A stretch of DNA of 64,000 bases from a virus: the IMG/VR virus record IMGVR_UViG_3300045912_000261, positions 1-64,000 of that record; one strand, given 5' to 3'. Position numbers and translations under genes: made by a program. This document shows, in pieces, positions 3,897 through 42,903 of the stretch. Every line of letters starts with the position of its first letter. Position 1 is the stretch's first letter. The notes under the pieces are model-generated. The model made no database searches. It was not told where the DNA came from and saw nothing but the letters and a program-made list of their open reading frames with translations.

Positions 3897-6239
3897 TTGA
3901 TGGGTTCGACTTTGTCCGAGGAAGCCATCAGGGATCTCAGGGGAAGCGGCCTCAGAGATGAGCACATTGAGGCTATGCGTTGCCGCCCTGCTACGGTACA
4001 AGATCTTCCGTTCGCAGCCACAGGCTACGTCATCCCCTACTTCATTCCCACTGAGGAAGGGGAGTATGTTCGCCTCGAGGTTTCAGGTACTCCCTTCTCT
4101 CGGATCAAGATCCTCTCGCACCAGTCATCCGGGAACGGAATCCCCAAGTATTACCAGAGGGCTGCCACAGGTTCTCACGTCTACTTCCCTCCCCTCGTAG
4201 AGGCTGCCCGTTGGTGGGACACCAACGAGCCGCTCATCATCACTGAAGGGGAGAAGAAGGCGGCCTGTGCTACCGCACAAGGGTTTCTAACGTGTGCTGT
4301 AGGCGGAATCGACTCGTGGCGGTCTAAGAAGCTTATGGTGCCACCGGAGGCTGTCGTCGCAGGCGGAACGAAAGCCGTCCTGGTGGAACTTGATGACGAG
4401 GCGGAGCAGAAGATCGAGCTCCGTGCAGCAGACGAACTGACCTGGCTTCCCTTGGAGGGACGCCGGGTTTACGTATGCTTTGATTCCGATGGGCTGCAGA
4501 GTAAACGTAACCGAGTAGCCCGAGCTGCCTTTGACTTTGCCATCTGGCTCGAGACCCAAGGGGCCGACCCTAGACAGGTGGTCCTTCCTGCCGAGCCTGG
4601 AGAGAAAGTTGGGCTGGATGACTTCCTAGTCTCGGGGGGCAAGCTTGAACCCCTACTCAGCTCTGCCCGCTTCCCCACCAGACCCGGGCTCAAGATGTGG
4701 GCGCGCAAGCAGCTTGCCAACCCTAGGCGCACCCGCAACACAATGACCTCAGTGGCCCGAGGGATCCTAGCTGCCCTCGATGAACGAGGGACGCGCTTCC
4801 GGGACCCCTATGGCATGTACTACTACTTCGATAAGGCAACGGATAAGCTCCACCTGATGCCCATCGAAACAGGCCAGTCACTGCAGGTTGCAGCCCCAAG
4901 TTTTCACCAGCTATTGGTGCGTGAATACGGAGTGTCATCCGCGGACCGGGAGCTGGTACAGCGCCTGGTTGACGACTTCGAATCCCTGGAGCCTGTGCAG
5001 CAAGTAACGCGGGTACATAGGCAGTCGTACGCGGCTCCTGATGCGCTGTATTACCAGCTGTCCGACTCCCGTATGGCGAAGGTTACAGCTTCGGGCATCG
5101 AGGTACTACGTAACGGGACCGACAGGGTCCTGTTCCAAGTCGGGGCCGAGGAAGTAGAGCTGTACAACAAACAGCTGCCCCCAGGGTTTGGTTGGCTGTC
5201 CATGTTGAAGACTACGTCCCTTGAGCCCATTGGCACTCTGACGCTGGATGAAACCCACCTCCTGGTCGCTTGCCTGTTCTACCTCTCGCCGTGGCTCCGT
5301 CGCTGGAGAGGGCTCATGCTGCCTGCTGAGCTGGCTGTGTCTGAAGCAGGCTCGGGTAAAAGCTCGTTGTACCAGCTGCGTTCGGGGATCTTTACTGGGT
5401 CGGCACGTCTGCAGCATCAGCCCGAGGACATGAGATCTTGGTACTCTTCGATCGCGGACGCCCGCGGTCTGTGGGTAGCAGACAACATGGGCTCGAAGAT
5501 CGACGTCAGGATCAGCAACGAGATTGCCCGCCTGATTACGGACCCCGACCCTGCATTCGAACTGCGTGAGCTCTACACCACCTCCAAAGTACACCGCATG
5601 CCCGTAGACTGTGTCTTCGCCTTCACAGCCATCTACAACCCCTTCCACAGGCCGGACATCCTCCAGCGGTCGCTGCAGCTCCGCTTCCATGCCATCACCA
5701 AGAGAGACGGTGGCTGGATGTACAGGCAGATCGCAGATCAGGGCAGATCGATGTGGGTGACTCATCACCTGCAAACAATCTCTCGTTTCCTGGACAACGC
5801 AAAGGACATGGAGTGGGGAGTCAGTTCGAAGCATCGTCTCGTAGGCTTTGAGCAATCCCTACGCTGCATGGGTATAACGCTCGGTCGCAGGGCCGATATC
5901 GAACGGGTGATCCAAAAGTTGCCCGAGGCTGTTCAGGAGAGTATCACTGCTGACGAGCCTGTGATTGCAGCCCTACGTGCATTCGTCAAGGTTAAGCAGG
6001 GGCAGCGTAACAGACGAACGAACAAGATCTCCCTGGACGAGATCGTTGAGTGGGCACAGTACGCCACAGGGGAGAGGTACCAAGACCTGCGGGTACTCCG
6101 CAATCCCAGGCTGCTGGAGAAGTACATTCAGGCTCACGCTCACGATGTGTACAACACTACAGGGATCAGGGCCACGCCTGAAGAGTTCCGTGGGTACAGA
6201 TTGTTCGAGATCGACTTCAGCAAGGTGGCGGCCGTATGA
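3897..6239 (+). CDS. DNA primase-helicase (DUF3854-type Toprim primase plus P-loop helicase domain)
   Basis: LIITEGEKKA, VYVCFDSD, KVGLDDFL Toprim motifs; EAGSGKSS Walker A; WVADN Walker B-like. Confidence 0.8.
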   Translation: MMGSTLSEEAIRDLRGSGLRDEHIEAMRCRPATVQDLPFAATGYVIPYFIPTEEGEYVRLEVSGTPFSRIKILSHQSSGNGIPKYYQRAATGSHVYFPPLVEAARWWDTNEPLIITEGEKKAACATAQGFLTCAVGGIDSWRSKKLMVPPEAVVAGGTKAVLVELDDEAEQKIELRAADELTWLPLEGRRVYVCFDSDGLQSKRNRVARAAFDFAIWLETQGADPRQVVLPAEPGEKVGLDDFLVSGGKLEPLLSSARFPTRPGLKMWARKQLANPRRTRNTMTSVARGILAALDERGTRFRDPYGMYYYFDKATDKLHLMPIETGQSLQVAAPSFHQLLVREYGVSSADRELVQRLVDDFESLEPVQQVTRVHRQSYAAPDALYYQLSDSRMAKVTASGIEVLRNGTDRVLFQVGAEEVELYNKQLPPGFGWLSMLKTTSLEPIGTLTLDETHLLVACLFYLSPWLRRWRGLMLPAELAVSEAGSGKSSLYQLRSGIFTGSARLQHQPEDMRSWYSSIADARGLWVADNMGSKIDVRISNEIARLITDPDPAFELRELYTTSKVHRMPVDCVFAFTAIYNPFHRPDILQRSLQLRFHAITKRDGGWMYRQIADQGRSMWVTHHLQTISRFLDNAKDMEWGVSSKHRLVGFEQSLRCMGITLGRRADIERVIQKLPEAVQESITADEPVIAALRAFVKVKQGQRNRRTNKISLDEIVEWAQYATGERYQDLRVLRNPRLLEKYIQAHAHDVYNTTGIRATPEEFRGYRLFEIDFSKVAAV

Positions 6240-6373
6240 AACCCAGTAGACCAGCAACCAACCTCCTAGTTCTGGCCGACCCCTCTCCCGACCCCGAGTG
6301 GACTGTTCTCACAGTAGCCGTATCCGCCTCGGTCCTGCAGGAACTCCTCCAAGACCTTTGGGACTGGTTCTAG
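6236..6373 (+). CDS. DWF-tailed microprotein (45 aa)
   Basis: ATGA overlap with primase stop; MKPSRP...QDLWDWF*. Confidence 0.6.
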   Translation: MKPSRPATNLLVLADPSPDPEWTVLTVAVSASVLQELLQDLWDWF

Positions 6374-6374
6374 C

Positions 6375-6590
6375 ATGAACAGTTCTACGGCTACTACGGA
6401 CTCCGGGTGGATCTTGACGTTTCCTGCCGTAACCCTCAAGGGGGGAGAGACCCTCCTCCTTCAGTATACGTATACCTGGACCTGCTCAGCTGCATACTAT
6501 ACCTGGACCTGCTCAGCTACGCATACTCGGAGTGCACGGAGGGTTTCCCTAAGTGTCCCAGAAGCTCTCCGCGAAGGTAACTGGTTCTAG
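6375..6590 (+). CDS. NWF-tailed microprotein (71 aa)
   Basis: ATG 1 nt after previous stop; ends REGNWF*. Confidence 0.55.
   Translation: MNSSTATTDSGWILTFPAVTLKGGETLLLQYTYTWTCSAAYYTWTCSATHTRSARRVSLSVPEALREGNWF
6471..6518 (+). repeat. 21-bp direct repeat, period 27 (YTWTCSA twice)
   Basis: TATACCTGGACCTGCTCAGCT at 6471 and 6498. Confidence 0.85.
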
Positions 6591-6591
6591 T

Positions 6592-6780
6592 ATGTACTTG
6601 CACAGCAGCAGCACGGCATACTACATTTGGACTAAGCAGGGCTACGAGAAACTGGGCAGCGACCTCAATTGGGGTGTGGTAGTAATCCCGCACATTGCGC
6701 CTAGGCCAGCACAAACATCACGACGCAGGATCTCTTCTAGGGTTTGGTGGGTCCTGAAGATGAGCAAAGACTGGTTCTAA
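6592..6780 (+). CDS. DWF-tailed microprotein (62 aa)
   Basis: ATG 1 nt after previous stop; ends MSKDWF*. Confidence 0.55.
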   Translation: MYLHSSSTAYYIWTKQGYEKLGSDLNWGVVVIPHIAPRPAQTSRRRISSRVWWVLKMSKDWF

Positions 6781-6917
6781 TGGCTTCTGACACCCCTCCT
6801 TCAGAGCTTCCCGATATCTTCACCATGCCCTTTGAGGACTTCCTCAGGCTCTTTAAGGCGCTGGGAAGCTATGTCTACTGCACGATCGTGTTCGAGCCCC
6901 GCGACGACTGGTTCTAG
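6780..6917 (+). CDS. DWF-tailed microprotein (45 aa)
   Basis: TAATG overlap; MASDTPP...EPRDDWF*. Confidence 0.6.
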   Translation: MASDTPPSELPDIFTMPFEDFLRLFKALGSYVYCTIVFEPRDDWF

Positions 6918-6925
6918 GAGGAAAC

Positions 6926-7618
6926 ATGGAACGAGGTCTTGGACGTAAGGAGCCGACTGACTGGCGCCACGTCGAGAAGTACCGCTTCACACGTACGACA
7001 ACTTCGGTAGAGCGAACGATCCCCCTAGTCTGGTCCGCCAGGACCTTCTACGATCAGGGAACTGAGGGAGCCTGCGTTGGGTTCTCCTGTTCTTGGATGA
7101 TGACTCTGCTCAACCGCCGACGGTATGATGCCTTCTGGCTCTACCGCGAAGCTCAGAAGGTTGACGAGTGGCCTGGTGAGGACTACAGCGGTACATCACT
7201 GCGTGCTGGCCTGGACATTCTGCGAGAGGTGGGTCACCGCAGAGTAGCCTGGAAACGGACCTATCCGGCAGCTTTGGGCGAAGGAATCCACGAGAACCGA
7301 TGGGCGACTAGTGTGGATGAGATCCGCGGGGCGATTGCTGAGGGTACGCCTGTGGTGCTCGGGATCAACTGGTACTCGAGCTTTGATGTTCCCGCACGTC
7401 GGTGGCCCAGATGGTTCATTGGAGACAGACCCGATTGGGGTTGGGTTAGGGGAGGCCATGCTATTTGTTGTCGGGGTGCCTCTGACGCACTCCAGTCAGT
7501 GTTGCTCACAAACTCCTGGGGACGAGATTACCCCGCAGGAGTATGGTTGCCTTATGAGGGACTGGCACGCCTACTACGGGAAAATGGAGAGGCTGGGCTT
7601 GTCACTGACCGCCCGTAG
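6926..7618 (+). CDS. papain-like (C1) cysteine peptidase
   Basis: DQGTEGACVGFS (Cys), GGHAI (His), NSWG (Asn); RBS AGGAGG. Confidence 0.85.
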   Translation: MERGLGRKEPTDWRHVEKYRFTRTTTSVERTIPLVWSARTFYDQGTEGACVGFSCSWMMTLLNRRRYDAFWLYREAQKVDEWPGEDYSGTSLRAGLDILREVGHRRVAWKRTYPAALGEGIHENRWATSVDEIRGAIAEGTPVVLGINWYSSFDVPARRWPRWFIGDRPDWGWVRGGHAICCRGASDALQSVLLTNSWGRDYPAGVWLPYEGLARLLRENGEAGLVTDRP

Positions 7619-7673
7619 GCTGGCTGCCTTCCTCAACATTGCCTCACCCGAGTATAGGGATGACTGGTTCTAA
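7599..7673 (+). CDS. DWF-tailed micropeptide (24 aa)
   Basis: TTG start after GGAGAGG; MSLTARR...YRDDWF*. Confidence 0.45.
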   Translation: MSLTARRLAAFLNIASPEYRDDWF

Positions 7674-7786
7674 TGGTCAACTGTAAATTGGACCTTTTCG
7701 AGGCCCTACTCAAGCAGCTCTCCCGAGCCTCCGCGAACCCACGCACGAGAGCCATCATTCTGGTCTGCGAGGAAGACTGGTTCTAG
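7673..7786 (+). CDS. DWF-tailed microprotein (37 aa)
   Basis: TAATG overlap; MVNCKL...CEEDWF*. Confidence 0.55.
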   Translation: MVNCKLDLFEALLKQLSRASANPRTRAIILVCEEDWF

Positions 7787-7825
7787 GGCCTCAGTTGTAC
7801 ACCTATGAAGATTTTTTGATGCCCA

Positions 7826-7855
7826 TTGATTTCCCAAGTGGCTTTCTGCTATAAT
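7826..7855 (+). promoter_or_regulatory. sigma70-type promoter with extended -10
   Basis: TTGATT-18 nt-TATAAT, TG before -10. Confidence 0.8.
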
Positions 7856-7894
7856 ATTGTTGAAAGCTTGCAATCTGCTCCGTGAGGGGACCTA

Positions 7895-8170
7895 ATGAAC
7901 GAGAGGGAAGTAGACGAGCGCGACCACATCGCCAAAAGGCTGTACGAGGTTCTCGAGGCTGCCAAGGCAGAAATGTCAGAGGATGCCGAGATGAACAGCG
8001 TCGTGCTGAAGGGCATGATCGTGCTCTCAGAGTGGGAGGACTTCGGCAACGGCACCGAATGGATGCACGTGGTCACGGCAAAAGGGTCTGACGGCAACGA
8101 CTCGATGACTCCGTGGCAGGCGAAGGGACTCCTGCAGGAGGCGATCGACAAGATCAACAAGAGCTCGTAG
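7895..8170 (+). CDS. hypothetical protein
   Basis: GAGGGGG RBS, first gene after promoter. Confidence 0.6.
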   Translation: MNEREVDERDHIAKRLYEVLEAAKAEMSEDAEMNSVVLKGMIVLSEWEDFGNGTEWMHVVTAKGSDGNDSMTPWQAKGLLQEAIDKINKSS

Positions 8171-8961: not shown

Positions 8962-9343
8962 GCGTTTCTGGGCCTCTGACGGGTACAATAATGGCCTCTA
9001 CAACTTTTGGGAGCCTCTCTGTAAGCCTCCATACAAGTGGAGCCCGTACGCCTTCGCCCTCTGTGGGCAGCTCGCATACGAAACTTTCGCCACAAGAATT
9101 GGCTCAGGGCTCTACGCATTCACGGCGTACGAGCTGCTGGGCTGTATTAGGCAGGCAGCGAGCTGCGGCTTTGCTTGCTGCCGGGTGCCCCACCCGAACG
9201 ACACTCTAGCCTACCTCGTGGGTGTACACTACTTAGTGGAATGCAACTTGCTGACCGGAGTGACTCCAGCCTCCTGGAGGCGAGCGGACCACTCCCTAAG
9301 AGATGGCTGCCGGTATGTGTTCAGGATCGATGACTGGTTTTAA
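8867..9343 (+). CDS. DWF-tailed hypothetical protein (158 aa)
   Basis: MTREQKR...FRIDDWF*; start uncertain. Confidence 0.55.
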   Translation: MTREQKRALDLLDQPPPEMSRTELENLDLLPRRFWASDGYNNGLYNFWEPLCKPPYKWSPYAFALCGQLAYETFATRIGSGLYAFTAYELLGCIRQAASCGFACCRVPHPNDTLAYLVGVHYLVECNLLTGVTPASWRRADHSLRDGCRYVFRIDDWF

Positions 9344-9485
9344 GTACGCCCCTGAGTTCGTACTGGGTGGCTTCATGGGTATGCTTTGGTATACTTGCAA
9401 CCTTCCAGGCCTCCTCGTCCTAGGCGTCCTCCTGCTGCTCGTTGCGGTCCTCCTTATCTGTAGGGAGCTAGCTGGTGACCTCTAG
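9330..9485 (+). CDS. small membrane protein starting inside the DWF motif
   Basis: ATG ACT GGT TTT (MTGF) overlaps GAT GAC TGG TTT TAA; hydrophobic. Confidence 0.5.
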   Translation: MTGFKYAPEFVLGGFMGMLWYTCNLPGLLVLGVLLLLVAVLLICRELAGDL

Positions 9486-9714
9486 CACAGAACGCCTCGC
9501 CTCCATCATCCTCGCGGGTGGGGTGATCCTGCTTCTGGGACTTCTCCTGGAGTTCGTTCCAGACCCGTTCGTCCTCTACCCCCTGCTCGGAGCCTTTGCA
9601 GGCAGCCTCGCCTGGAGGGCAGTCGCCTCGGTGCACCGTGCAGGCCGTAAGGTAGGCTCCCTCAAGAAGATGCTCGTCTTCCAGCAGATCAGGGACTCCA
9701 ATGATTGGTTCTGA
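9475..9714 (+). CDS. DWF-tailed membrane protein (79 aa)
   Basis: two hydrophobic segments; ends DSNDWF*. Confidence 0.6.
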   Translation: MTSSTERLASIILAGGVILLLGLLLEFVPDPFVLYPLLGAFAGSLAWRAVASVHRAGRKVGSLKKMLVFQQIRDSNDWF

Positions 9715-12914: not shown

Positions 12915-12944
12915 TTGCAAGGCACTTAAGGGATGCTGTAAAAT
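12915..12944 (+). promoter_or_regulatory. sigma70-type promoter
   Basis: TTGCAA-18 nt-TAAAAT. Confidence 0.7.
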
Positions 12945-12988: not shown

Positions 12989-13603
12989 ATGCCTGCTCCA
13001 TTGCAAGGACTGCGTGGCGTGTTCCTCCCTGTGGTTGACAACATCTGTACCAAGGAGACCGTAGCCTTCGCGAGAGTAGACGCCGGTGATGCTGAAGCTG
13101 CAGCACGACATCTTTGGATCTGGCAGGGTGAAGGAAGCTACCCAGCTCGCCCTGATGGAGCCAAACTTCCTCATTGCGTGCTGGGAGTTTCCCCTTCCAC
13201 CCCAGTTGAGCCGCGCAACCGAAACTTCCTGGACTGCCGTAGGTTCAATCTGCGAACCAAGCCAGCTCGCAACAAGGTCGCGGACCGCATCCGCAGCAGA
13301 TTTCGAGGAGTCCTCAGAGACCCCCATCCGCCCGACAGCCTTCGTCCCTGGCTGGCTTACGGAAGAACACCAGAAGGAGGCCTTGCACGCCTGGGCTACT
13401 TCCGAAGAGAGGAAGAGGCAGCCACCCGAGCTAGGGAGTGGGAAAGAGCTTATCAGTCAATACACCTGGAGGACGACTGGCAGGGCGGAGGTTTCGGAAG
13501 ACACTTGGGTTCTCCCAAGTCATCCTCCAGGCACGTTAACGCTGGCCCCGGAAAGTTCATCGACCGGGAGGGTCCTGAACTGGAAGCTTGGGACTGGTTC
13601 TAG
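12989..13603 (+). CDS. degenerate HNH-AP2 protein with DWF tail
   Basis: FARVD..D...W, VEPRNRNFLDCRRFNLR (HNH DH dyad replaced by EP), SRFRGV...W.AY...LGYF..EEEAA (AP2); ends EAWDWF*. Confidence 0.65.
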   Translation: MPAPLQGLRGVFLPVVDNICTKETVAFARVDAGDAEAAARHLWIWQGEGSYPARPDGAKLPHCVLGVSPSTPVEPRNRNFLDCRRFNLRTKPARNKVADRIRSRFRGVLRDPHPPDSLRPWLAYGRTPEGGLARLGYFRREEEAATRAREWERAYQSIHLEDDWQGGGFGRHLGSPKSSSRHVNAGPGKFIDREGPELEAWDWF

Positions 13604-13689
13604 GAGACTATGGCTTCCAAAGCCCCCACCAAAGTGGAGGGTGGCACTGATAGTGGCCCAGCCTCTTTGCGACCTCAGACTCCTAGGAG

Positions 13690-13908
13690 ATGACTGGTTC
13701 TAGATACACCCCCGAGAAGTACTGCGTAGACATCGACTCCAGAACCAACGGTCACGGCGTCACGTACTCCATCTGGATCTACCCCTACGACCCTGAAGAT
13801 GCCACACCTCTACCCCTTCGCCCTAGTAGGCAGATCTGCACAAGGCATTTCCTCGCTCTTCACGTGGTCGAGGCAGTCGTCAGGGGACACAGTGGAGACT
13901 GGTTCTGA
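13690..13908 (+). CDS. MTGS...DWF microprotein (72 aa)
   Basis: ATG inside upstream DWF motif; ends HSGDWF*. Confidence 0.6.
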   Translation: MTGSRYTPEKYCVDIDSRTNGHGVTYSIWIYPYDPEDATPLPLRPSRQICTRHFLALHVVEAVVRGHSGDWF

Positions 13909-14086
13909 GCTTCCAAAGTGTCACGTTGAGCTTCTCGAAGGCCCAGGACACGTTTACAAGATATGGGAGACGAGACAACTAGCTTCAGGCAGAACCCGCT
14001 GGACCGAGCTCGCCGTCTTGCGACCGCCCTTCTTCTTGGATCCCTACAGAGTTTTCGAGATGGCAAACTCCTATGACTGGTTCTAA
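13892..14086 (+). CDS. METGS...DWF microprotein (64 aa)
   Basis: GTG start reading through upstream motif; ends NSYDWF*. Confidence 0.55.
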   Translation: METGSELPKCHVELLEGPGHVYKIWETRQLASGRTRWTELAVLRPPFFLDPYRVFEMANSYDWF

Positions 14087-14237
14087 CATCGTGGGCGTGA
14101 GCTACTCGGGGAGGACACCTTGTGGCGGATTCTCATACACAGTGTTCCGAGAGACAGGCAAGCTTACTCTTACCCTCAGGCACCGACCGCAATCTCATGT
14201 CGTAGCAATCGCCCTTAGCTCTGATGACTGGTTCTGA
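14073..14237 (+). CDS. MTGS...DWF microprotein (54 aa)
   Basis: ATG inside upstream motif; ends SSDDWF*. Confidence 0.6.
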   Translation: MTGSNIVGVSYSGRTPCGGFSYTVFRETGKLTLTLRHRPQSHVVAIALSSDDWF

Positions 14238-14391
14238 GGGCTTTCTAGGGGTAGACTCCCTTTTACTCCAGGGGCCGAAGGGTTTCACGTACGTTGCCTA
14301 CTACGCGACCCACAGCACTAAGTACGTCATTAGCAGGCCCCTGAGCTCCTGGGTCCTGGATCACCTCCACCGCTCCGATGACTGGTTCTGA
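14224..14391 (+). CDS. MTGS...DWF microprotein (55 aa)
   Basis: ATG inside upstream motif; ends RSDDWF*. Confidence 0.6.
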   Translation: MTGSEGFLGVDSLLLQGPKGFTYVAYYATHSTKYVISRPLSSWVLDHLHRSDDWF

Positions 14392-14545
14392 CGCCTTCTG
14401 GCTCATCCTGTTCTTCTTCTGTCTTGGTGGGGTGCTTCTCCTCGCCATCTGGCTGGTCATGCAGTTCTGGTGGCTCATCCTGGGGTTCGTTGGGCTCGTG
14501 ATCCTCTGGGAAGCTATTGTCCTTAACGGAGAGGAGCCTTGGTAG
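14378..14545 (+). CDS. MTGS-starting membrane microprotein (55 aa)
   Basis: ATG inside DWF motif; very hydrophobic; ends EEPW*. Confidence 0.55.
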   Translation: MTGSDAFWLILFFFCLGGVLLLAIWLVMQFWWLILGFVGLVILWEAIVLNGEEPW

Positions 14546-14794
14546 GTGGGTCTTTTCTTCTACAGCCCTAGGGGCATTAGGGCAGCGGCTAGCAACGCAG
14601 CCGTGGAAATAGGCATCTACGGCGAGTACGGCTTGGGGGACCTGAACCTGATCATCCGCTACCAGAAGAACCTTAGGAGGGTTCGGGAGAGTCCAGAAGA
14701 TGTGGCTGCTAAGCTAACCGCCGACCAGCTTATTGCCAAGCATAGCGACCGCTGGGGCAACCGAGCCGTAGGGTCCATCCGCCCTAAGCTATAA
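14546..14794 (+). CDS. hypothetical protein
   Basis: abuts previous stop. Confidence 0.45.
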   Translation: MGLFFYSPRGIRAAASNAAVEIGIYGEYGLGDLNLIIRYQKNLRRVRESPEDVAAKLTADQLIAKHSDRWGNRAVGSIRPKL

Positions 14795-15690: not shown

Positions 15691-16221
15691 TTGCCGTGGC
15701 GAGCCACAACAACGGGGGAGCACACCGTAAGAACACGTCCCCTGGGCGCGCTATCCAAGGATTACTCGCGCTTGCCCTCCTCGCCGTGGCAGCTGCCATC
15801 CTCGCGTACGTGGGAGGAATTGTGGCAGCCTTCGCGGTCACGTTATTCGAAGCCGGCTGGTCGACTATCCGATAGTGACAGACGCTGGCTTCGCAGGACC
15901 CTTGTGGACCTAGTTACCCCACCTGAGCTGACCGGCATTGTCCATGTCCTCCAGGACCCTCTTGACTACGTTCTAACGAGTCTTCTCTTGGACGCATGTC
16001 AGGAGAGGGAGCTCAGATTCAAGCTCAAGTTTGCTACCAGCCCCGCAGGCTTCTACTATACGCCTCACCCTCGTGCAGTCATTACTCCCAGGGGGTGGCA
16101 CGATAGGGAACTACGGAAGCTGTTCCTGCTGATTCGGAGGGCCCAAACTCGTATACACACAAGGATCCTCCTGAAGGCCTTGTTCCCGCCGGTGACAGCC
16201 GGGAGGCATGACTGGTTTTAG
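15691..16221 (+). CDS. DWF-tailed hypothetical protein; true start probably downstream (a separate membrane ORF 15696-15875 overlaps the 5' part)
   Basis: ends AGRHDWF*. Confidence 0.5.
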   Translation: MPWRATTTGEHTVRTRPLGALSKDYSRLPSSPWQLPSSRTWEELWQPSRSRYSKPAGRLSDSDRRWLRRTLVDLVTPPELTGIVHVLQDPLDYVLTSLLLDACQERELRFKLKFATSPAGFYYTPHPRAVITPRGWHDRELRKLFLLIRRAQTRIHTRILLKALFPPVTAGRHDWF

Positions 16222-16359
16222 GTGGTGGAGTGCCGGAGAATGGGTTACTTCGGATCGACACCGAGAGGACCCGGGTTCGAATCCCGGCCGCTCCACTAGG
16301 GGCGGTAGCTCAGTGGTAGAGCGCTACGTACCCACTCGTTAACGCCTCCACCACCTAAA
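16217..16359 (+). ncRNA. YrlA-type Y RNA with circularly permuted tRNA-like domain
   Basis: 14-bp terminal stem TTTAGGTGGTGGAG/CTCCACCACCTAAA; GTGCCGG...GGGTTACTTC...GTTAACGC motif; T-arm CCGGG-TTCGAAT-CCCGG, then acceptor stem closed by a short loop, then D-arm GCTC-AGTGGTA-GAGC; near Ro60 gene. Confidence 0.8.
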
Positions 16360-17419: not shown

Positions 17420-18982
17420 ATGGGAAAGTTTAGCCGCACTGTAGGAGGAGCTACCCGGGAAACTATCCCTGAGGGGATGGCTGCCAACCGCGAAGGGGCA
17501 GCTGCCTACGAGCACGTCCCGGAGTACCGCCTGCTCTCGCTGATGTTGACCTCTTTCGTGGAGGACCAGTTCTACCGTAGTGCCCAGGATACTCTCCTCG
17601 ACCTTAAGGGCCTCATCCGGGAGGTAGGTCCTCTCTTCGCGGCGAAGGCAACCTCCTACGTCCGCAACGAGCACGGGATGCGATCCATTACGCACGCTGC
17701 CACTTGCGAGATCGTCAGGCTCGTCTCCGAAGAGACCCATCAGAAGCCTGGTGAGGGCCGAGGGCCTGAGTGGACGAAGGCATTTGTGGCAGATACCATC
17801 CGGCGCGTCGATGACGCTCAGGAGATGGTAGCCTACTGGCTCCACACCTACGGCAAGCCTCTACCGCACGCTCTCCTGAAGGGGATCCGACTCTCGCTGC
17901 AGGATCGCGGGCGCTATCAGCTGGCGAAGTACCGCGGCGAGGGCAAGGAGGTCAACCTCACCGACCTCATGAGGCTGACGCACCCCTCCCCCACCAACGG
18001 GGAGTCGCGCCAGGCGTGGGAGGACCTCACCTACGGACGCCTCTCGGCTGCTGGGGAAACCTGGGAGGCCATGCTTACGCAGGCTGGCCAGGATGCCGAT
18101 GGCGAGGAGGACAAGGCTGCCCGCAAGGCGGAGGTGTGGCGGACCCTCATCGTGGACGAGAGGCTGCCCTACTTCGCGCTACTTCGGAACCTCCGGAACA
18201 TTGCGCAGCAGGCCAGGGATGCGCTACCCATGGCGCTGGAGCAGCTACGCAACCCCGACTCCATCCGCAAGTCGCTGGTGCTGCCCTTCCGCTTCATCAC
18301 GGCGGCGGACACTCTAGCCGGAGCCGACCTTGACGCCTCGGCCTTGCGGGAAATCAGGCTAGCCCTGGACGCCGCCATCGAGGTCTCTCTGGAGAACGTA
18401 CCTTACCTCTCCGGGAGGACCTGTGTCGCGCTGGACGACTCCGGCTCCATGGTCTCGCGACTCCGGAAGGGTGCGGCGACTCCCGCTGAGATCGGTGCCG
18501 GCTTCGCTGCCGTTCTCGTGAAGGTGAACAACGCCGACCTGATGCTGTTCTCCGACACCGCGCGTTACGTTACGGTCAACAACCAGGACAGCACGCTATC
18601 GATCATCGAGCAGATCAGGCATAGGTACCGAGGGGCGGGGACGAACCATCACGCGCCGTTCGAGCTTGCGGAGAAGCAGAGGACGGCCTACGACCGCTTC
18701 GTAGTGCTCTCCGATGAGCAGGGTTGGATGCCTCACGGGTACCTGCGCTACTACGGTATGGGTAACCCGAAGGAGGTCCTGGAAGCTTACAAGCGGAGCG
18801 CGGGGGTAGACCCGTTCGTGTACTCCTTCGACCTGCAGGGGTACGGAACCACCATGTTCCAGGGGGAAAAGATCTTCCTCCTTTCGGGTTGGAGCTCCGA
18901 GACGCTGAAGATCATGTCCACCCTAGAGGGCGACAGGAACGCGCTCATCAAGCAGGTTGACGAATATCGTAGCTGGCGGTAG
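17420..18982 (+). CDS. Ro60/TROVE-domain RNA-binding protein (Rsr-like)
   Basis: NREGAAAY, EDQFY, YQLAKY, TWE, LPYFALLRNLRNI, VLPFRF; vWA MIDAS DDSGSM, GAGTN, VLSDEQ. Confidence 0.92.
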   Translation: MGKFSRTVGGATRETIPEGMAANREGAAAYEHVPEYRLLSLMLTSFVEDQFYRSAQDTLLDLKGLIREVGPLFAAKATSYVRNEHGMRSITHAATCEIVRLVSEETHQKPGEGRGPEWTKAFVADTIRRVDDAQEMVAYWLHTYGKPLPHALLKGIRLSLQDRGRYQLAKYRGEGKEVNLTDLMRLTHPSPTNGESRQAWEDLTYGRLSAAGETWEAMLTQAGQDADGEEDKAARKAEVWRTLIVDERLPYFALLRNLRNIAQQARDALPMALEQLRNPDSIRKSLVLPFRFITAADTLAGADLDASALREIRLALDAAIEVSLENVPYLSGRTCVALDDSGSMVSRLRKGAATPAEIGAGFAAVLVKVNNADLMLFSDTARYVTVNNQDSTLSIIEQIRHRYRGAGTNHHAPFELAEKQRTAYDRFVVLSDEQGWMPHGYLRYYGMGNPKEVLEAYKRSAGVDPFVYSFDLQGYGTTMFQGEKIFLLSGWSSETLKIMSTLEGDRNALIKQVDEYRSWR

Positions 18983-25394: not shown

Positions 25395-25637
25395 GTGAGC
25401 CTACCTGTGTTTGACCACAACTACGGCTTTCATCCTCAGCCGAACCAGCGCACGGTAGGAACTAAAGCACTCGCACGTAGGTTAGGGATTCATTACCTGA
25501 CCGTGATGAAGCACATCAAGAACGGCAACATCCGCTCCGTTCGATACGGCAAGCTCTACCGCATCCCTCTGGAAGAGGTAGAGCGTATCGAACGTGAAGG
25601 CTTTGTGCCAAAGGAGCCCTCAGATGTCGACGCCTGA
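25395..25637 (+). CDS. excisionase-like HTH DNA-binding protein
   Basis: LARRLGIHYLTVMKHIKNGNI...YRIP..EVER. Confidence 0.75.
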   Translation: MSLPVFDHNYGFHPQPNQRTVGTKALARRLGIHYLTVMKHIKNGNIRSVRYGKLYRIPLEEVERIEREGFVPKEPSDVDA

Positions 25638-26352
25638 AAAGGCAGTTGTTCTCTCCTCAGGTGGGCTAGACTCCACCACAGTACTGGCAATGGTCGTCAA
25701 CGACTTCGGTGCCGAGAACGTCCAGACAGTCAGCTTCGACTACGGACAGTCCCACAAGGTCGAGCTTAGGGCAGCCCAGGCGGTTGCGGACTTCTACCAG
25801 GTTAGTCAGAACGAGATCGTTATGCCCCGTATCTTCTCCGGGACAGGCGCCTCCAGCCTAATGGGTGAAATCGAACACCCCGATCTAACCTACAAGGAGA
25901 TTGCTGAAGGTGAAGGCGTCTCCCCTACGTACGTCCCGTTCCGTAATGCCAACTTGATCTCCGCCGCCACAGCCTTTGCAATGACCCAGAATGCCTCGTG
26001 GGTCTTTACGGGTGTGCACGCAGAGGATGCCCGTAACTGGGCTTATCCCGATTGCTCCATGGAATTTATTGGGGCGATGGCCAACGCCATCTACGTAGGG
26101 ACGTACCACAAGGTCCGCCTCGTTGCTCCTCTCCAGTACATGATGAAGTGGGAGATCGTCACTCGGGGAACCGCGCTGGGAGCCCCGTTCCACCTGACGC
26201 ACTCGTGCTACAAGGGGGCTCAGCCGGCCTGCGGCACGTGCCCCACCTGCGTTGAGCGTCTGGGCGCCTTTAGGTTGGCTGGCGAGCACGACCCAATCGA
26301 GTATGCCCCCGGGATCGACCGCGAGTCCGACCGCTACGAACTGAGTCGATAG
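25624..26352 (+). CDS. queC: 7-cyano-7-deazaguanine synthase
   Basis: SGGLDS, FDYGQ.H..E, TYVPFRN, YPDC, SCY...CGTCPTC. Confidence 0.95.
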   Translation: MSTPEKAVVLSSGGLDSTTVLAMVVNDFGAENVQTVSFDYGQSHKVELRAAQAVADFYQVSQNEIVMPRIFSGTGASSLMGEIEHPDLTYKEIAEGEGVSPTYVPFRNANLISAATAFAMTQNASWVFTGVHAEDARNWAYPDCSMEFIGAMANAIYVGTYHKVRLVAPLQYMMKWEIVTRGTALGAPFHLTHSCYKGAQPACGTCPTCVERLGAFRLAGEHDPIEYAPGIDRESDRYELSR

Positions 26353-36931: not shown

Positions 36932-37691
36932 GGGCCAGTTTGCCCCTGTAGGGAGCCTTACGCACTACAGGTTCCTTGAGGAACAAGGTGTCTTAGGGGA
37001 CTACCACCTCCTGCTAGCCCACAAGGTGCTGGAGGACCCTGATGGCTGGATCGATCTCTACAGACGCATCAGGGAACAGGGAAGAGAGCCCTTCGTGATC
37101 ATGGACAACTCCTTGATCGAGCTGGGCCGTCCCCTTCAGGCACCCGCACTGGCTGAAGCCTCCCGGATCGTAGATGCCTCGTGCCTCGTGCTTGCTGACG
37201 TGCTTTCTAACCGCCGAGCTACCGTCGAGCTCTCGGTGGCCATGCACTACGAGCTGCGGAAGATGAAGGAGGTCCCTCCCTTCCTTGCGGTGGTCCAGGG
37301 AGCCTCGTACGAGGATGCGCTACTTTGCGCAGAGGAACTAGCCTCCTTGGAAGGTGTGCGCTACCTCTCGATACCCAGAGTCGTAGCGGACACCATGGGG
37401 ACTCGGAAGCACCTGGTCAAAGAGGTCTACCGTAGGCATCAGCTCCCGATTCACCTCCTAGGCTTCTCTGAAGACATGGCAGATGACATCATGTGCACTA
37501 GTCTACCGGGGGTCATGGGGATCGACTCAGCTGTCCCCCTCCGGATGGGGCTCGCTGGAGTAGCCTGGGGCCCCCATCGGAAGACACCACCCCGACCGAA
37601 GAACTTCCTCGACAGCAAGGATGTTAATGTCCTCATGGTCGAAAACACAGTGGAAGTACGTAAGGCCATCGGACCCCAGGAAGCTACCTAA
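36921..37691 (+). CDS. TGT-fold protein, candidate DpdA-like DNA 7-deazaguanine transglycosylase
   Basis: VIMDNS, LAVVQG, PIHLLG, GIDS motifs match the TGT barrel layout; next to que/folE genes. Confidence 0.65.
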   Translation: MCPRGQFAPVGSLTHYRFLEEQGVLGDYHLLLAHKVLEDPDGWIDLYRRIREQGREPFVIMDNSLIELGRPLQAPALAEASRIVDASCLVLADVLSNRRATVELSVAMHYELRKMKEVPPFLAVVQGASYEDALLCAEELASLEGVRYLSIPRVVADTMGTRKHLVKEVYRRHQLPIHLLGFSEDMADDIMCTSLPGVMGIDSAVPLRMGLAGVAWGPHRKTPPRPKNFLDSKDVNVLMVENTVEVRKAIGPQEAT

Positions 37692-37833
37692 GCACGACCC
37701 CGAGAAAGCTGTCAATCGACAAGCTGCCATATTTCTGGCGTCGTCAGTCCCAGCAAAACGGAGGTTGAGGGTCCATATCTACACCAAAGGGGCGCACCCC
37801 AGACTCCGGAGCGTTCTCGAGGACTGGTTCTAG
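37621..37833 (+). CDS. DWF-tailed microprotein, start uncertain
   Basis: ends SVLEDWF*. Confidence 0.5.
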   Translation: MLMSSWSKTQWKYVRPSDPRKLPKHDPEKAVNRQAAIFLASSVPAKRRLRVHIYTKGAHPRLRSVLEDWF

Positions 37834-38000
37834 TGCGCTGCGAACTAGAAAGAGCGGCGGCGGAGCATGTTCGCTTCCTTCTAGGGATGAGCTCTGCTGA
37901 CAGGCGGGAAGCCTTCGGACGCCTCCAACACCTAGAGTACGCAGCGCGGCTCCGCTCTGAGTACGCCCTTCTCTGGTTCGAGCTTACGGACTGGTTCTAG
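37833..38000 (+). CDS. DWF-tailed microprotein (55 aa)
   Basis: TAGTG overlap; ends ELTDWF*. Confidence 0.6.
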   Translation: MRCELERAAAEHVRFLLGMSSADRREAFGRLQHLEYAARLRSEYALLWFELTDWF

Positions 38001-38131
38001 TGGTAGGCGAGCCTTTGCAGTGGCTTATGAAGTATGTCCTGACCAGAGAGGTCTCGCTGCCTTCGGCCTCGTGGCTTCTTAGCCCCCGTAAGAAGCGCCA
38101 GCTGCTCGGGTACCTCAATGACTGGTTCTAG
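38000..38131 (+). CDS. DWF-tailed microprotein (43 aa)
   Basis: TAGTG overlap; ends YLNDWF*. Confidence 0.65.
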   Translation: MVGEPLQWLMKYVLTREVSLPSASWLLSPRKKRQLLGYLNDWF

Positions 38132-38262
38132 TGTATCTGAACTTGGTACAGTGGCTGCTGCAGAGAGTTCTCGGGAGGGAGATTAGCTTGCACTCAGCCT
38201 TCTACCTCCTTAGCGCTGTCGAGTCAGCTGACCTTCGATCCAGTCTCGAGGACTGGTTTTGA
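38131..38262 (+). CDS. DWF-tailed microprotein (43 aa), paralogue of previous
   Basis: TAGTG overlap; shared QWL...VL.RE.SL.SA..LLS; ends SLEDWF*. Confidence 0.65.
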   Translation: MYLNLVQWLLQRVLGREISLHSAFYLLSAVESADLRSSLEDWF

Positions 38263-38417
38263 TACAGGTAGAAAGTCCAGCCCAGAGCTGGATGAGAGTG
38301 CTTTTAAGTCCTGAGTACTACTCTCTGTGGTGGAGGATGCACAAGTACGAAGCCTTCAAGAGGGGCTGCGAACCTTACGGATGGGCAGTCGTCTGCGAGA
38401 TGCATGACTGGTTCTAG
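38259..38417 (+). CDS. DWF-tailed microprotein (52 aa)
   Basis: TTGA overlap; ends EMHDWF*. Confidence 0.6.
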   Translation: MIQVESPAQSWMRVLLSPEYYSLWWRMHKYEAFKRGCEPYGWAVVCEMHDWF

Positions 38418-38595
38418 CTTGTTGGCCCTAACAGAGCCTGAATCAACTCAGGAGTGGGTATTCCTACTCTTGGGTACGCAGTACCCCTCGTGGTGGCGCG
38501 TGAATCGCTTCTACAGTTTCGCTGGCCTCGCAGTACTAGGGTCCCCCGACGGGCTGGCGGCCACGGTCGTGAGGGAGATCCAGGACTGGTTCTGA
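38404..38595 (+). CDS. MTGS...DWF microprotein (63 aa)
   Basis: ATG inside motif (or TTG 38419); ends EIQDWF*. Confidence 0.6.
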   Translation: MTGSSLLALTEPESTQEWVFLLLGTQYPSWWRVNRFYSFAGLAVLGSPDGLAATVVREIQDWF

Positions 38596-38756
38596 TGCCG
38601 GATCCCGATCCAGTACAGTGTTGGGTGCGCCTTCTCCTGATGACCGATATCCACGCCGATTGGCGAAAGGCTCAACACCACAACTTCAAAGCTCGCGCGG
38701 AGCTAGGAGGGTGGCACGAGATCGCCATCGTGGTAGCTCTCGCGGACTGGTTCTAG
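38595..38756 (+). CDS. DWF-tailed microprotein (53 aa)
   Basis: TGATG overlap; ends ALADWF*. Confidence 0.6.
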   Translation: MPDPDPVQCWVRLLLMTDIHADWRKAQHHNFKARAELGGWHEIAIVVALADWF

Positions 38757-38932
38757 TGCCTATAGGCTCTCGAGCAGGCTATCGCCGCAGTCTGGAGTGG
38801 CACACCTCGTATCGAGCCAGCAGGATTCTCCGAGAAAAATCCGTCCGAAAGCATGAACTCGAGCTGGTGGAGAAGGTTGCGAACCCGGACTACCGCAGGG
38901 CGGTAAGAGAACATCTGGCTGACTGGTTTTAG
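38756..38932 (+). CDS. DWF-tailed microprotein (58 aa)
   Basis: TAGTG overlap; ends HLADWF*; stop overlaps polymerase start. Confidence 0.6.
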   Translation: MPIGSRAGYRRSLEWHTSYRASRILREKSVRKHELELVEKVANPDYRRAVREHLADWF

Positions 38933-42552: not shown

Positions 42553-42903
42553 ATGATCGAAGCCCTCTCCCTCGAGCCCGCTAAGAACTGTCTCAGTGGC
42601 ATCTTCCCCCTCGACTACGAGGATGACATTGCCCTCATGAGGGCAGTGCGAGACCTCCTTTTCAGCGAGCAGTACGAGGCAGGAAACCCCGAATACATCA
42701 AGCCCAGGGGGGAGGGAGTAGTAGAGAGGATCAACTTCCTCTTCCGGGGCTTTGACGGGGACACTCTGCGGGCGTTCAACTTCACTCTCAGCCACAGAAG
42801 ACCTCATGTCGGCAGCTACGACTCTGGAACGCACAACCTCGCTGCCCGCTCGATGGGCTTCACGGTCCATCACTACCTAACCGAGTGGCTCGACTGGTTC
42901 TAA
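42553..42903 (+). CDS. DWF-tailed hypothetical protein (116 aa)
   Basis: ends EWLDWF*. Confidence 0.55.
   Translation: MIEALSLEPAKNCLSGIFPLDYEDDIALMRAVRDLLFSEQYEAGNPEYIKPRGEGVVERINFLFRGFDGDTLRAFNFTLSHRRPHVGSYDSGTHNLAARSMGFTVHHYLTEWLDWF

Follow-up and report, generated by a model that had tools for sequence, protein, structure and literature searches.

A coding word for a C-terminal Asp-Trp-Phe tail with an embedded candidate start codon in a chain of small phage genes

The stretch of DNA analysed here (the window) comprises positions 1 to 64,000 of the IMG/VR record IMGVR_UViG_3300045912_000261, which represents an uncultured phage of 112 kb. Between 12.9 and 14.8 kb its + strand carries a chain of small genes, preceded by a sigma-70-like promoter candidate at 12915–12944 (TTGCAA, an 18-nt spacer and TAAAAT; a consensus match only). 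The head of the chain is a 204-aa ORFan (12989–13603) that is called as a gene in a public assembly and ends in W-D-W-F followed by TAG; Pfam, PHROG and homologue searches with it were all empty, and an AP2/HNH-like label was not confirmed. The next unit, B (13602–13703), is a doubtful candidate, namely a frame-0 stretch ending in L-G-D-D-W-F-TAG. As a preliminary description of this DNA had pointed out, this unit (there 13593–13703) has no canonical start at its upstream junction, where GGG at 13590 stands in place of ATG. A GGAGG at 13636–13640 precedes in-frame GTG codons at 13641 and 13653, from which peptides of 20 or 16 residues ending in DDWF could be made, and the highest score over the final 20 codons of the unit belongs to the DWF frame. 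A rival to unit B is a 27-aa ORF in another frame (13610–13693), for which an AGGAG site is present and which overlaps unit C through an ATGA.

Unit C (72 aa, 13690–13908) has its own frame as the best-scoring one and ends in S-G-D-W-F-TGA; its assigned start, also used by the public gene call, overlaps the preceding ORF by 14 nt. Unit D (64 aa, ending at 14086 in S-Y-D-W-F-TAA) most likely starts with the GTG at 13892, four nucleotides downstream of AGGGGA and in a 17-nt overlap, the alternative being an ATG at 13799. Unit E (54 aa, 14073–14237) ends in S-D-D-W-F-TGA and may start at 14073 or at one of the GTG codons at 14091 and 14097; the exact ATG-start product is absent from the public collection. 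Unit F (55 aa, 14224–14391) also ends in S-D-D-W-F-TGA and has a single possible start. The last member, unit G (55 aa, 14378–14545), is hydrophobic and membrane-like, has the highest codon score of the chain and terminates in E-E-P-W rather than DWF. It is followed by an 82-aa gene (14546–14794), whose GTG comes directly after TAG and which has a GAGGAG Shine–Dalgarno site.

The units are joined by a short word, GACTGGTTCT, which occurs six times between 13592 and 14391 (at 13592, 13692, 13897, 14075, 14226 and 14380), each copy directly followed by TAG, TAA or TGA. In four of the six, AT in front of the word creates an ATG two nucleotides upstream of it (13690, 14073, 14224 and 14378; these are the assigned starts of units C, E, F and G, in words 2, 4, 5 and 6), while GTGGA in front of the third copy provides a GTG at 13892, five nucleotides ahead of it. 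The next ORF thus begins within the last codons of the preceding gene, with an overlap of 14 or 17 nt, and each ORF of the chain lies in the +1 frame relative to its predecessor. The first copy, GACTGGTTCTAG (13592–13603), is preceded by GG and consequently has no embedded ATG. Allowing at most one mismatch, RTGACTGGTTCT matches 21 times, on the + strand only, whereas 0.63 matches are expected. The preliminary description had read the word as a DWF stop and an MTGS start at once; coordinates and frames bear this out wherever AT precedes the word, and the additional sites that it named at 9330, 38404 and 9976 are all present. Dual use is therefore real, but the feature common to the sites is DWF with its stop, found 28 times in the genome, and not the ATG, since AT stands in front of only ten words. 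Moreover, the ATG codons at 7660, 9701, 16208 and 38118 are not the start of the downstream gene, and two more in-frame ATGs lie further upstream of the one at 9330.

A faint pattern shared by the units had also been proposed. Alignment does reveal columns in which G, Y, R or S never changes, but pairwise likeness does not exceed z = 2, and leave-one-out profiles outscore shuffled sequences in two of the four units. AlphaFold2 models of unit C (pLDDT 71) and unit F (pLDDT 67) consist of three strands and one helix, after which the DWF tail is drawn as a low-confidence coil. The four chain units (C to F) are only faintly alike in sequence, yet in the models they appear to share a strand-strand-strand-helix order and a floppy tail. 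A Foldseek search with the unit C model against PDB and BFVD gave no significant match (a chromodomain-like order reached an E of 0.6), and a homologue search with unit C in the atlas found none. Similarly, whole-library HMMER returned no homologue of a 116-aa tailed protein, and the sole match of Pfam and PHROGs over the tailed proteins was a cREC_REC protein.

The chain is a local instance of a genome-wide feature. C-termini of the type D/N-W-F are found on 28 + strand ORFs (DWF on 25, NWF on three) and on none of the − strand; the runner-up tripeptide tail occurs six times among 1126 ORFs. Variants of the 9-nt word are limited to GAT (one), TTT (four) and AAC (three), all of which are synonymous or change D to N. 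The 28 tails are followed by TAG (14), TAA (6) or TGA (8), a mixture matching that of the other + strand genes (Fisher p=0.68), and the word is never followed by TGG. Across the last 20 codons, the codon score is highest in the DWF frame in 28/28 cases. Residues outside the word are kept by differing codons: the Ser at −5 in units C to F is encoded by AGT, TCC, TCT and TCC, and an aliphatic residue at the same position in 8/8 tails of the cluster at 38 kb by five different codons. Three tails have no coupled downstream protein-coding gene, the word at 16210 being followed by a structured RNA, that at 42892 by an intergenic spacer containing a separate Shine–Dalgarno site and that at 7775 by the end of the operon. 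In the cREC_REC protein the tail sits beyond the end of the Pfam domain, and 0/119 cREC_REC homologues end in WF. The spread of the tails over the genome, the restriction to synonymous or D-to-N variants, the acceptance of any stop, the uncoupled tails and the untailed homologues lead us to read DWF as a C-terminal peptide tag specific to this lineage.

The embedded ATG is itself under selection. Where the codon before GAC is of the type NAY, it ends in T in 10/12 cases, compared with 20% genome-wide (p=4e-6); this holds for 6/6 words whose ATG is the start and for 4/6 whose ATG is not (p=0.017). Units C and F have no alternative ATG, GTG or TTG start at all, unit G has none near the junction, and gene callers of the public collection adopt the embedded ATG for all three. 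Of the genes starting in or just past the word, 4/18 have a Shine–Dalgarno core of 4 nt or more in front of them, versus 69/122 of the other + strand genes. Judging from these sequence features, the embedded ATG most likely acts as a start codon lacking a Shine–Dalgarno site and used through translational coupling. The next start is found at variable distances from the word (−5, −2, +11, +13, +20, +22 and +23), and in 25/28 tails a start lies within −5 to +23 nt; at ten other DWF junctions, stop and start belong to the −1 class (TAATG, TAGTG or TGATG). The Asp codon is GAC in 24/25 cases as against an expected 74% (p=0.005). Together with the T-ending codon before unused ATGs, this excess suggests an extra constraint at the nucleotide level, or copying, beside selection on the peptide.

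Taken as a whole, the locus is probably an operon of tiny, lineage-specific early genes whose products carry a C-terminal tag and whose embedded starts are read by coupled translation; we regard this as reasonably probable. The chain would then consist of the 204-aa head gene, the doubtful unit B, four units of 54–72 aa predicted to fold as three strands plus a helix, and a putative small membrane protein. All chain proteins but the last would carry the tag (S/G)-x-Asp-Trp-Phe-COOH, common to 28 proteins of the phage, which most likely serves as a short exposed label for docking or addressing, read by a single shared partner. With the tag coded as GAC TGG TTC plus a stop, an xAT codon in front of it yields ATG-ACT-GGT-TCT in the +1 frame, and the chain appears to have recruited this ATG (once a GTG) to begin the next gene, 14 (or 17) nt ahead of the previous stop. 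Ribosomes finishing the upstream gene would most likely re-initiate a few bases back by termination–reinitiation. Coupling of overlapping co-directional genes in this manner has been described by Huber et al. (PMC6728339, PMC10666635) and reviewed (PMC12548453). The chain resembles such pairs in that the genes are co-directional, stop and start overlap, the downstream genes mostly lack a Shine–Dalgarno site and several such junctions follow one another in a single operon. It departs from them in the length of the overlap, which is usually 4, 1 or 8 nt, longer ones being selected against, whereas here 14 nt recurs four to six times and 17 nt occurs once. The recurrence of 14 nt follows from the start being embedded in a fixed peptide-coding word.

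Alternatively, the word may primarily be a signal in the nucleic acid, such as an RNA element that holds or repositions terminating ribosomes, a site of processing or a regulator's binding site on the DNA, with DWF as a by-product. The strictly single orientation of the word within one transcription module, the GAC excess, the preference for T in front of it even where the ATG is unused and the poverty of the downstream genes in Shine–Dalgarno sites would all agree with this, and for ten genes starting at +11, including that of the DNA polymerase, the word even occupies the Shine–Dalgarno position. Precedents exist in other phage loci, where junction words made of a Shine–Dalgarno site and an overlapping start impose EQQ tails (GGAGCAGCAGTGA, locus L110) or LRWS tails (TTGAGGTGGTCATGA, locus L148). 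Start-associated sequences and stoperators of mycobacteriophages are likewise conserved junction words, acting as Shine–Dalgarno site or operator and fixed at the nucleotide level. Like all of these, the DWF word is short and asymmetric, lies in one orientation at many junctions and dictates the end of the upstream protein. Unlike the start-associated sequences and stoperators, it never occurs out of frame with a stop, its variation is synonymous, its distance from the next start is variable, and it is present without a downstream gene, as the three words lacking a coupled ORF illustrate. Nor is it complementary to the anti-Shine–Dalgarno sequence, canonical sites being used by other genes of the phage, and we found neither conserved RNA structure around the word nor an Rfam family. 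A nucleic-acid signal would also leave unexplained why the word tolerates only synonymous and D-to-N changes, accepts any stop at genomic frequencies and is flanked by residues conserved through differing codons, so that we hold this alternative to be unlikely. Selection on the peptide could be reconciled with the 25/28 tails near a start and with the Shine–Dalgarno-poor downstream genes if the nascent DWF peptide slowed release or recycling within the ribosome and thereby promoted re-initiation nearby, the peptide then being selected for its function at the junction. To our knowledge, there is no bacterial precedent for this mechanism. One case of peptide-dependent termination–reinitiation is known from a human mRNA (PMC3923131) and counts in its favour. 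However, three tails have no downstream ORF, and larger proteins, for example cREC_REC, are also tailed although their next gene is more than 20 nt away, which makes a role of the nascent peptide distinctly improbable.

Two further alternatives had been put forward in the preliminary description. According to the first, the chain is an accordion of cassettes, in which recombination at the word duplicates, deletes or shuffles units. As an active recombination boundary, the word would also allow units to be inserted and would spread the tail and the start signal to new ORFs. Such traffic could account for unrelated proteins having an identical tail in identical codons, GAC excess included, for the tandem paralogues of the 38-kb cluster (z 9–11), for the modelled topology and the S-x-DWF flavour of tail common to the chain units and for each cluster having a tail flavour of its own. 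The junctions themselves argue otherwise: their identity ends at 13 nt (with 23/26 nt in one pair), they contain neither an inverted repeat nor a conserved structure, and no recombinase lies at them, the sole neighbouring match being an HTH protein without a recombinase catalytic domain. The phage is represented by 3–4 contigs in the source metagenomes, and public copies of the chain proteins are all identical singletons. Pattern scans of viral, metagenome and genome contigs for two words 150–180 nt apart found no relative with another number of units; the matches with stops were dismissed as tandem DNA repeats or repeat proteins in another frame. An 11-kb query found no match among cultured phages by megablast, DWF tails were lacking in 80 ligase-based and 21 PolA-based relative loci (the latter at most 45% identical), the nearest relatives had no copy of the word, and no homologue of any DWF protein was present in 1.5 Mb. 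The divergence of the chain units past pairwise detection indicates that there has been no recent exchange, while the tandem duplication in the sister cluster (38.0–38.8 kb) makes a slow birth by duplication plausible. The dual-use feature is real and unusual, but its working as a recombination accordion is without direct support, and we give this explanation a slim chance. The second alternative, programmed +1 frameshifting at TTC-stop to fuse successive units into polyproteins, draws on the +1 frame of all next units, on the missing junction start of unit B and on the known stimulation of +1 shifts by stop codons in the A site. This amounts to a fit with the frame geometry only, and the +1 relation is automatic once an ATG lies two nucleotides before GAC. 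Re-pairing of tRNA-Phe from UUC to UCU is impossible, no Shine–Dalgarno-like stimulator lies at a fixed distance, no element upstream is conserved, and a frameshift site has no need of a selected ATG, which argues for initiation instead; slippage is therefore very unlikely.

If coupled translation of tagged genes is the correct explanation, a peptide tag can dictate the architecture of an operon, three residues forcing a 14-nt overlap and supplying the next start. The chain would then also be a compact test bed for Shine–Dalgarno-free initiation and backward re-initiation in bacteria, and it would inform how ORFan microproteins arise and are wired into the programme of a phage. It is tempting to speculate that the 13–14-nt word works as a self-contained 'plug-in' boundary, giving the gene on its left a docking tag and a stop and the gene on its right a Shine–Dalgarno-free start for re-initiation. 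Duplication or microhomology-mediated exchange could bring any ORF into place between two words, where expression and tagging would come of themselves, and such clusters could serve as a nursery for new small phage proteins. We consider this extension quite unlikely to be right as it stands.

As for the tag, the operon would add a clear case of shared C-terminal end-tags on unrelated small phage proteins; our literature search found nothing relevant on a DWF tail or on shared tails of phage early proteins, and hence no published account. A eukaryotic counterpart is [LIM]-[DES]-[WF]-COO−, the C-terminal address label by which client proteins of cytosolic Fe–S assembly (CIA) are recognized by one hub reader (PMC10245660). 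Both are very short, acidic–aromatic extreme C-termini on otherwise unrelated proteins; D/N-W-F, however, is shifted by one position and has an extra aromatic residue, and the clients here are phage ORFans. Acidic tails ending in Phe are also borne by SSB and by T7 gp2.5 and gp4. The bacterial sliding clamp, in turn, binds the motif Q-phi-x-[L/M]-[F/L] (consensus QLDLF; reviewed in PMC11139829). With this motif and the SSB tails the DWF tail shares last residues reminiscent of D-L-F, a free and flexible C-terminus and a neighbourhood of replication genes, although this is a resemblance only: a conserved Gln at −5 is lacking in the 28 tails, the aliphatic −5 residue is confined to the 38-kb cluster, and while the tails do end in Phe, Trp invariably occupies position 4 in place of Leu or Met. 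Neither a clamp nor an OB-fold SSB that could read the tail was found to be encoded by the phage. Along the genome, the tailed genes cluster near those for the primase–helicase, ligase, polymerase and dNMP kinase.

In the chain of small overlapping ORFs on the + strand, the word GACTGGTTCT, which encodes Asp-Trp-Phe (DWF), lies at 13592, 13692, 13897, 14075, 14226 and 14380, and a stop codon directly follows every copy. Four of the six copies are preceded by AT, so that the +1 frame reads ATG-ACT-GGT-TCT (MTGS) and the next ORF overlaps by 14 nt; a GTG at 13892, 5 nt ahead of the word, gives an overlap of 17 nt. Both the six-word chain with its dual use of stop and start and the GTG variant, as claimed in the preliminary description, are thus borne out. 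With at most one mismatch, RTGACTGGTTCT occurs 21 times, on the + strand only, as compared with 0.63 expected. The embedded ATG is the sole ATG, GTG or TTG in the open frames of units C (13690–13908) and F (14224–14391), and unit G (14378–14545) has only one alternative start, a GTG 52 nt into a hydrophobic segment. Public gene calls also use the embedded ATG for these three units, and the codon score of each unit is highest in its own frame. The feature is genuine and has solid statistical backing.

Unit B, the frame-0 stretch 13602–13703, ends in a perfect GATGACTGGTTCTAG and carries GGG in place of the ATG of the other units, in agreement with the initial observation that 13593–13703 is open without a start at the motif. 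It is possibly a decayed unit, possibly a recoding product, or possibly a 16- or 20-residue peptide initiated at GTG 13653 or 13641, both of which are preceded by GGAGG (13636–13640). In another frame, a 27-aa ORF (13610–13693) served by an AGGAG site and joined to unit C through an ATGA overlap would preserve an unbroken chain of coupling.

Over the whole genome, the tail is found on 28 + strand ORFs, as DWF in 25 and as NWF in 3, and on no − strand ORF; the runner-up tail occurs six times among 1126 ORFs. The tails cluster at 6.4–7.8, 9.3–10.0, 13.6–14.4 and 37.8–38.9 kb, with isolated cases at 16.2, 42.9, 44.5, 106.6 and 111.9 kb, and tailed ORFs often adjoin replication genes. Since AT precedes only 10 words and the distance to the next start varies, being +11 (TAATG, TAGTG or TGATG) in ten junctions, including those of PolA and dNMP kinase, and +13, +20, +22 or +23 in others, the constant element is the tail plus stop and not the MTGS start. 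The dual use originally proposed for an MTGS/DWF word stands, but a constant MTGS start does not.

Several features are evidence for a peptide signal. The word varies only by GAT (one case), TTT (four cases) and AAC (three cases), all of them either synonymous or Asp-to-Asn changes. The stops that follow (14 TAG, 6 TAA, 8 TGA) show the same mix as in other + strand genes (p=0.68), and over the last 20 codons the DWF frame scores highest in 28 of 28 cases. Conservation extends to flanking residues whose codons differ: position −5 is Ser in units C–F (AGT, TCC, TCT, TCC), and in the 38-kb cluster it is aliphatic in every one of the eight tails (five codons). Three tails have no coupled downstream ORF: the word at 16210 leads into a tRNA-like/Y-RNA-like element, that at 42892 is followed by a spacer that has a Shine–Dalgarno site of its own, and that at 7775 is an operon end. 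In the sole tailed protein of a recognisable family, a cREC_REC (cyclic-phosphate processing receiver) protein (genome 106366–106659; 6366–6659 of L221, a later stretch of the same genome), the tail lies beyond the domain end, in an 11-residue extension ending W-N-W-F; neither the WF end nor the extension was found in any of 119 homologues. The tail would work like known C-terminal address tripeptides, yet it matches none of them. The three C-terminal residues of the clamp-binding consensus QLDLF are similar, but the tail does not conform at the Gln and Leu/Met positions that define that motif.

Some nucleotide-level component of the word may nevertheless exist. GAC is used in 24 of 25 cases as compared with 74% expected (p=0.005), and T-ending preceding codons are in excess also at words whose ATG is not used (4/6, p=0.017). 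Moreover, junction words that impose a tail are real in two other IMG/VR phage loci. In L110 (IMGVR_UViG_2773857716_000001, − strand), five ORFs ending E/Q-E-Q-Q are joined by GGAGCAGCAGTGA, a Shine–Dalgarno site, spacer and GTGA overlap that dictates the EQQ tail. In L148 (IMGVR_UViG_3300032325_000636, + strand, 4675–7908), about ten small paralogues lie in tandem, with L-R-W-S or L-R-W-L as their C-termini, encoded by TTGAGGTGGTCATGA; since this is a Shine–Dalgarno site with an ATGA overlap, a nucleotide-level word fixes the end of the upstream protein. The DWF word, in contrast, is unlike a Shine–Dalgarno site, and other genes of the same phage have canonical ones. Neither a conserved RNA structure around the word nor an Rfam family was found, which again favours the peptide.

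On codon statistics, the embedded start itself is selected. In 10 of 12 cases the third base of the NAY codon ahead of GAC is T, as compared with 20% genome-wide (p=4e-6), and this holds in 6/6 of those in which the ATG probably serves as start. Of 18 genes starting in or just after the word, 4 have a Shine–Dalgarno core of ≥4 nt upstream, versus 69 of 122 other + strand genes, a contrast somewhat inflated by a gene finder that favours such sites. Both patterns are compatible with re-initiation by terminating ribosomes. Termination–reinitiation coupling is well described at 4-, 1- and 8-nt overlaps and would work alike here, but the recurrent 14-nt overlap is unusual; this spacing recurs because the tag word is fixed. 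The word is best interpreted as a tag-encoding sequence doubling as a coupled start. The alternative of +1 slippage at the word is weakened because the +1 relation is a consequence of geometry and because a tRNA on UUC could not re-pair after a +1 shift.

The units are, with moderate confidence, old and strongly diverged paralogues. The faint pattern noticed among them is partly upheld by alignment columns in which G, Y, R and S do not vary and by leave-one-out profiles, in which only 2 and 5 of 500 shuffles outscored units E (14073–14237) and F; it is weaker for C and D (13892–14086), with 63 and 47 of 500, and with termini removed the pairwise z of units C–F (≤2.0) is not significant, as compared with 9–11 for the 38-kb paralogues. 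AF2 models of unit C (strands 11–20, 23–32, 47–51; helix 57–66; pLDDT 71) and unit F (strands 7–17, 20–27, 31–36; helix 42–50; pLDDT 67) share the order of elements, with the tail a low-confidence coil, but both were built on the same four-row alignment and are not independent, and none of the fold matches to the unit C model in the PDB and BFVD reached significance. The idea that recombination between identical junctions duplicates, deletes or shuffles units is unsupported rather than refuted. Junctions share 13 nt (23 of 26 nt in one pair), and part of the 38-kb cluster was clearly built by tandem duplication. Searches of viral, metagenome and genome collections found no word-carrying relative; the closest relatives on ligase (≤41% identity, best aligned segment) and on PolA (45%) have neither DWF tails nor homologues of the tailed proteins, and public copies of these proteins are all identical singletons.

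The 38-kb cluster comprises eight microproteins of about 43–70 aa (37833–38932, +), all ending aliphatic-x-D-W-F, between a 256-aa ORF without Pfam match (36921–37691) and PolA, whose GTG start overlaps the last stop of the cluster and has no Shine–Dalgarno site. Significant paralogue sets are 38000–38131 with 38131–38262, and 38259–38417 with 38404–38595 and 38595–38756. Small hydrophobic, membrane-like proteins lie in or at the ends of DWF clusters (9303–9485, 9475–9714, 14378–14545); only 9475–9714 bears the tail, and 14378–14545 ends E-E-P-W.

The phage record (112,533 bp, about 90% complete, 58% G+C; the window is its first 64 kb) has no close cultured phage, the top PolA identity among these being 34%. 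Its + strand encodes a DUF3854 primase–helicase-like protein, ATP-dependent ligase, SNF2 helicase, PD-(D/E)XK nuclease, UDG–PolA fusion, dUTPase and dNMP kinase, together with a sigma-70 family (ECF-like) factor (32712–33248, +) sharing the module of the tailed genes. The phage DNA is probably modified, given the + strand 7-deazaguanine pathway genes for QueC, a PTPS/QueD-like protein and GTP cyclohydrolase I (25624–26352, 28993–29936, 34029–34862); an HNH_3 endonuclease gene (29391–29936) directly follows QueD. ARAGORN calls a 75-nt tRNA-Ser(CGA) at 16222–16296 (+), which Rfam does not confirm as a tRNA at gathering score, and a YrlA (Y-RNA-like) match at 16264–16325 reaches 37 bits, under the gathering score of 69. 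The + strand Ro60/TROVE gene (17420–18982) adjoins this element, and 16222–16325 probably encodes a Y-RNA-like transcript of the phage that includes a tRNA-like module, beside the phage Ro60 orthologue.
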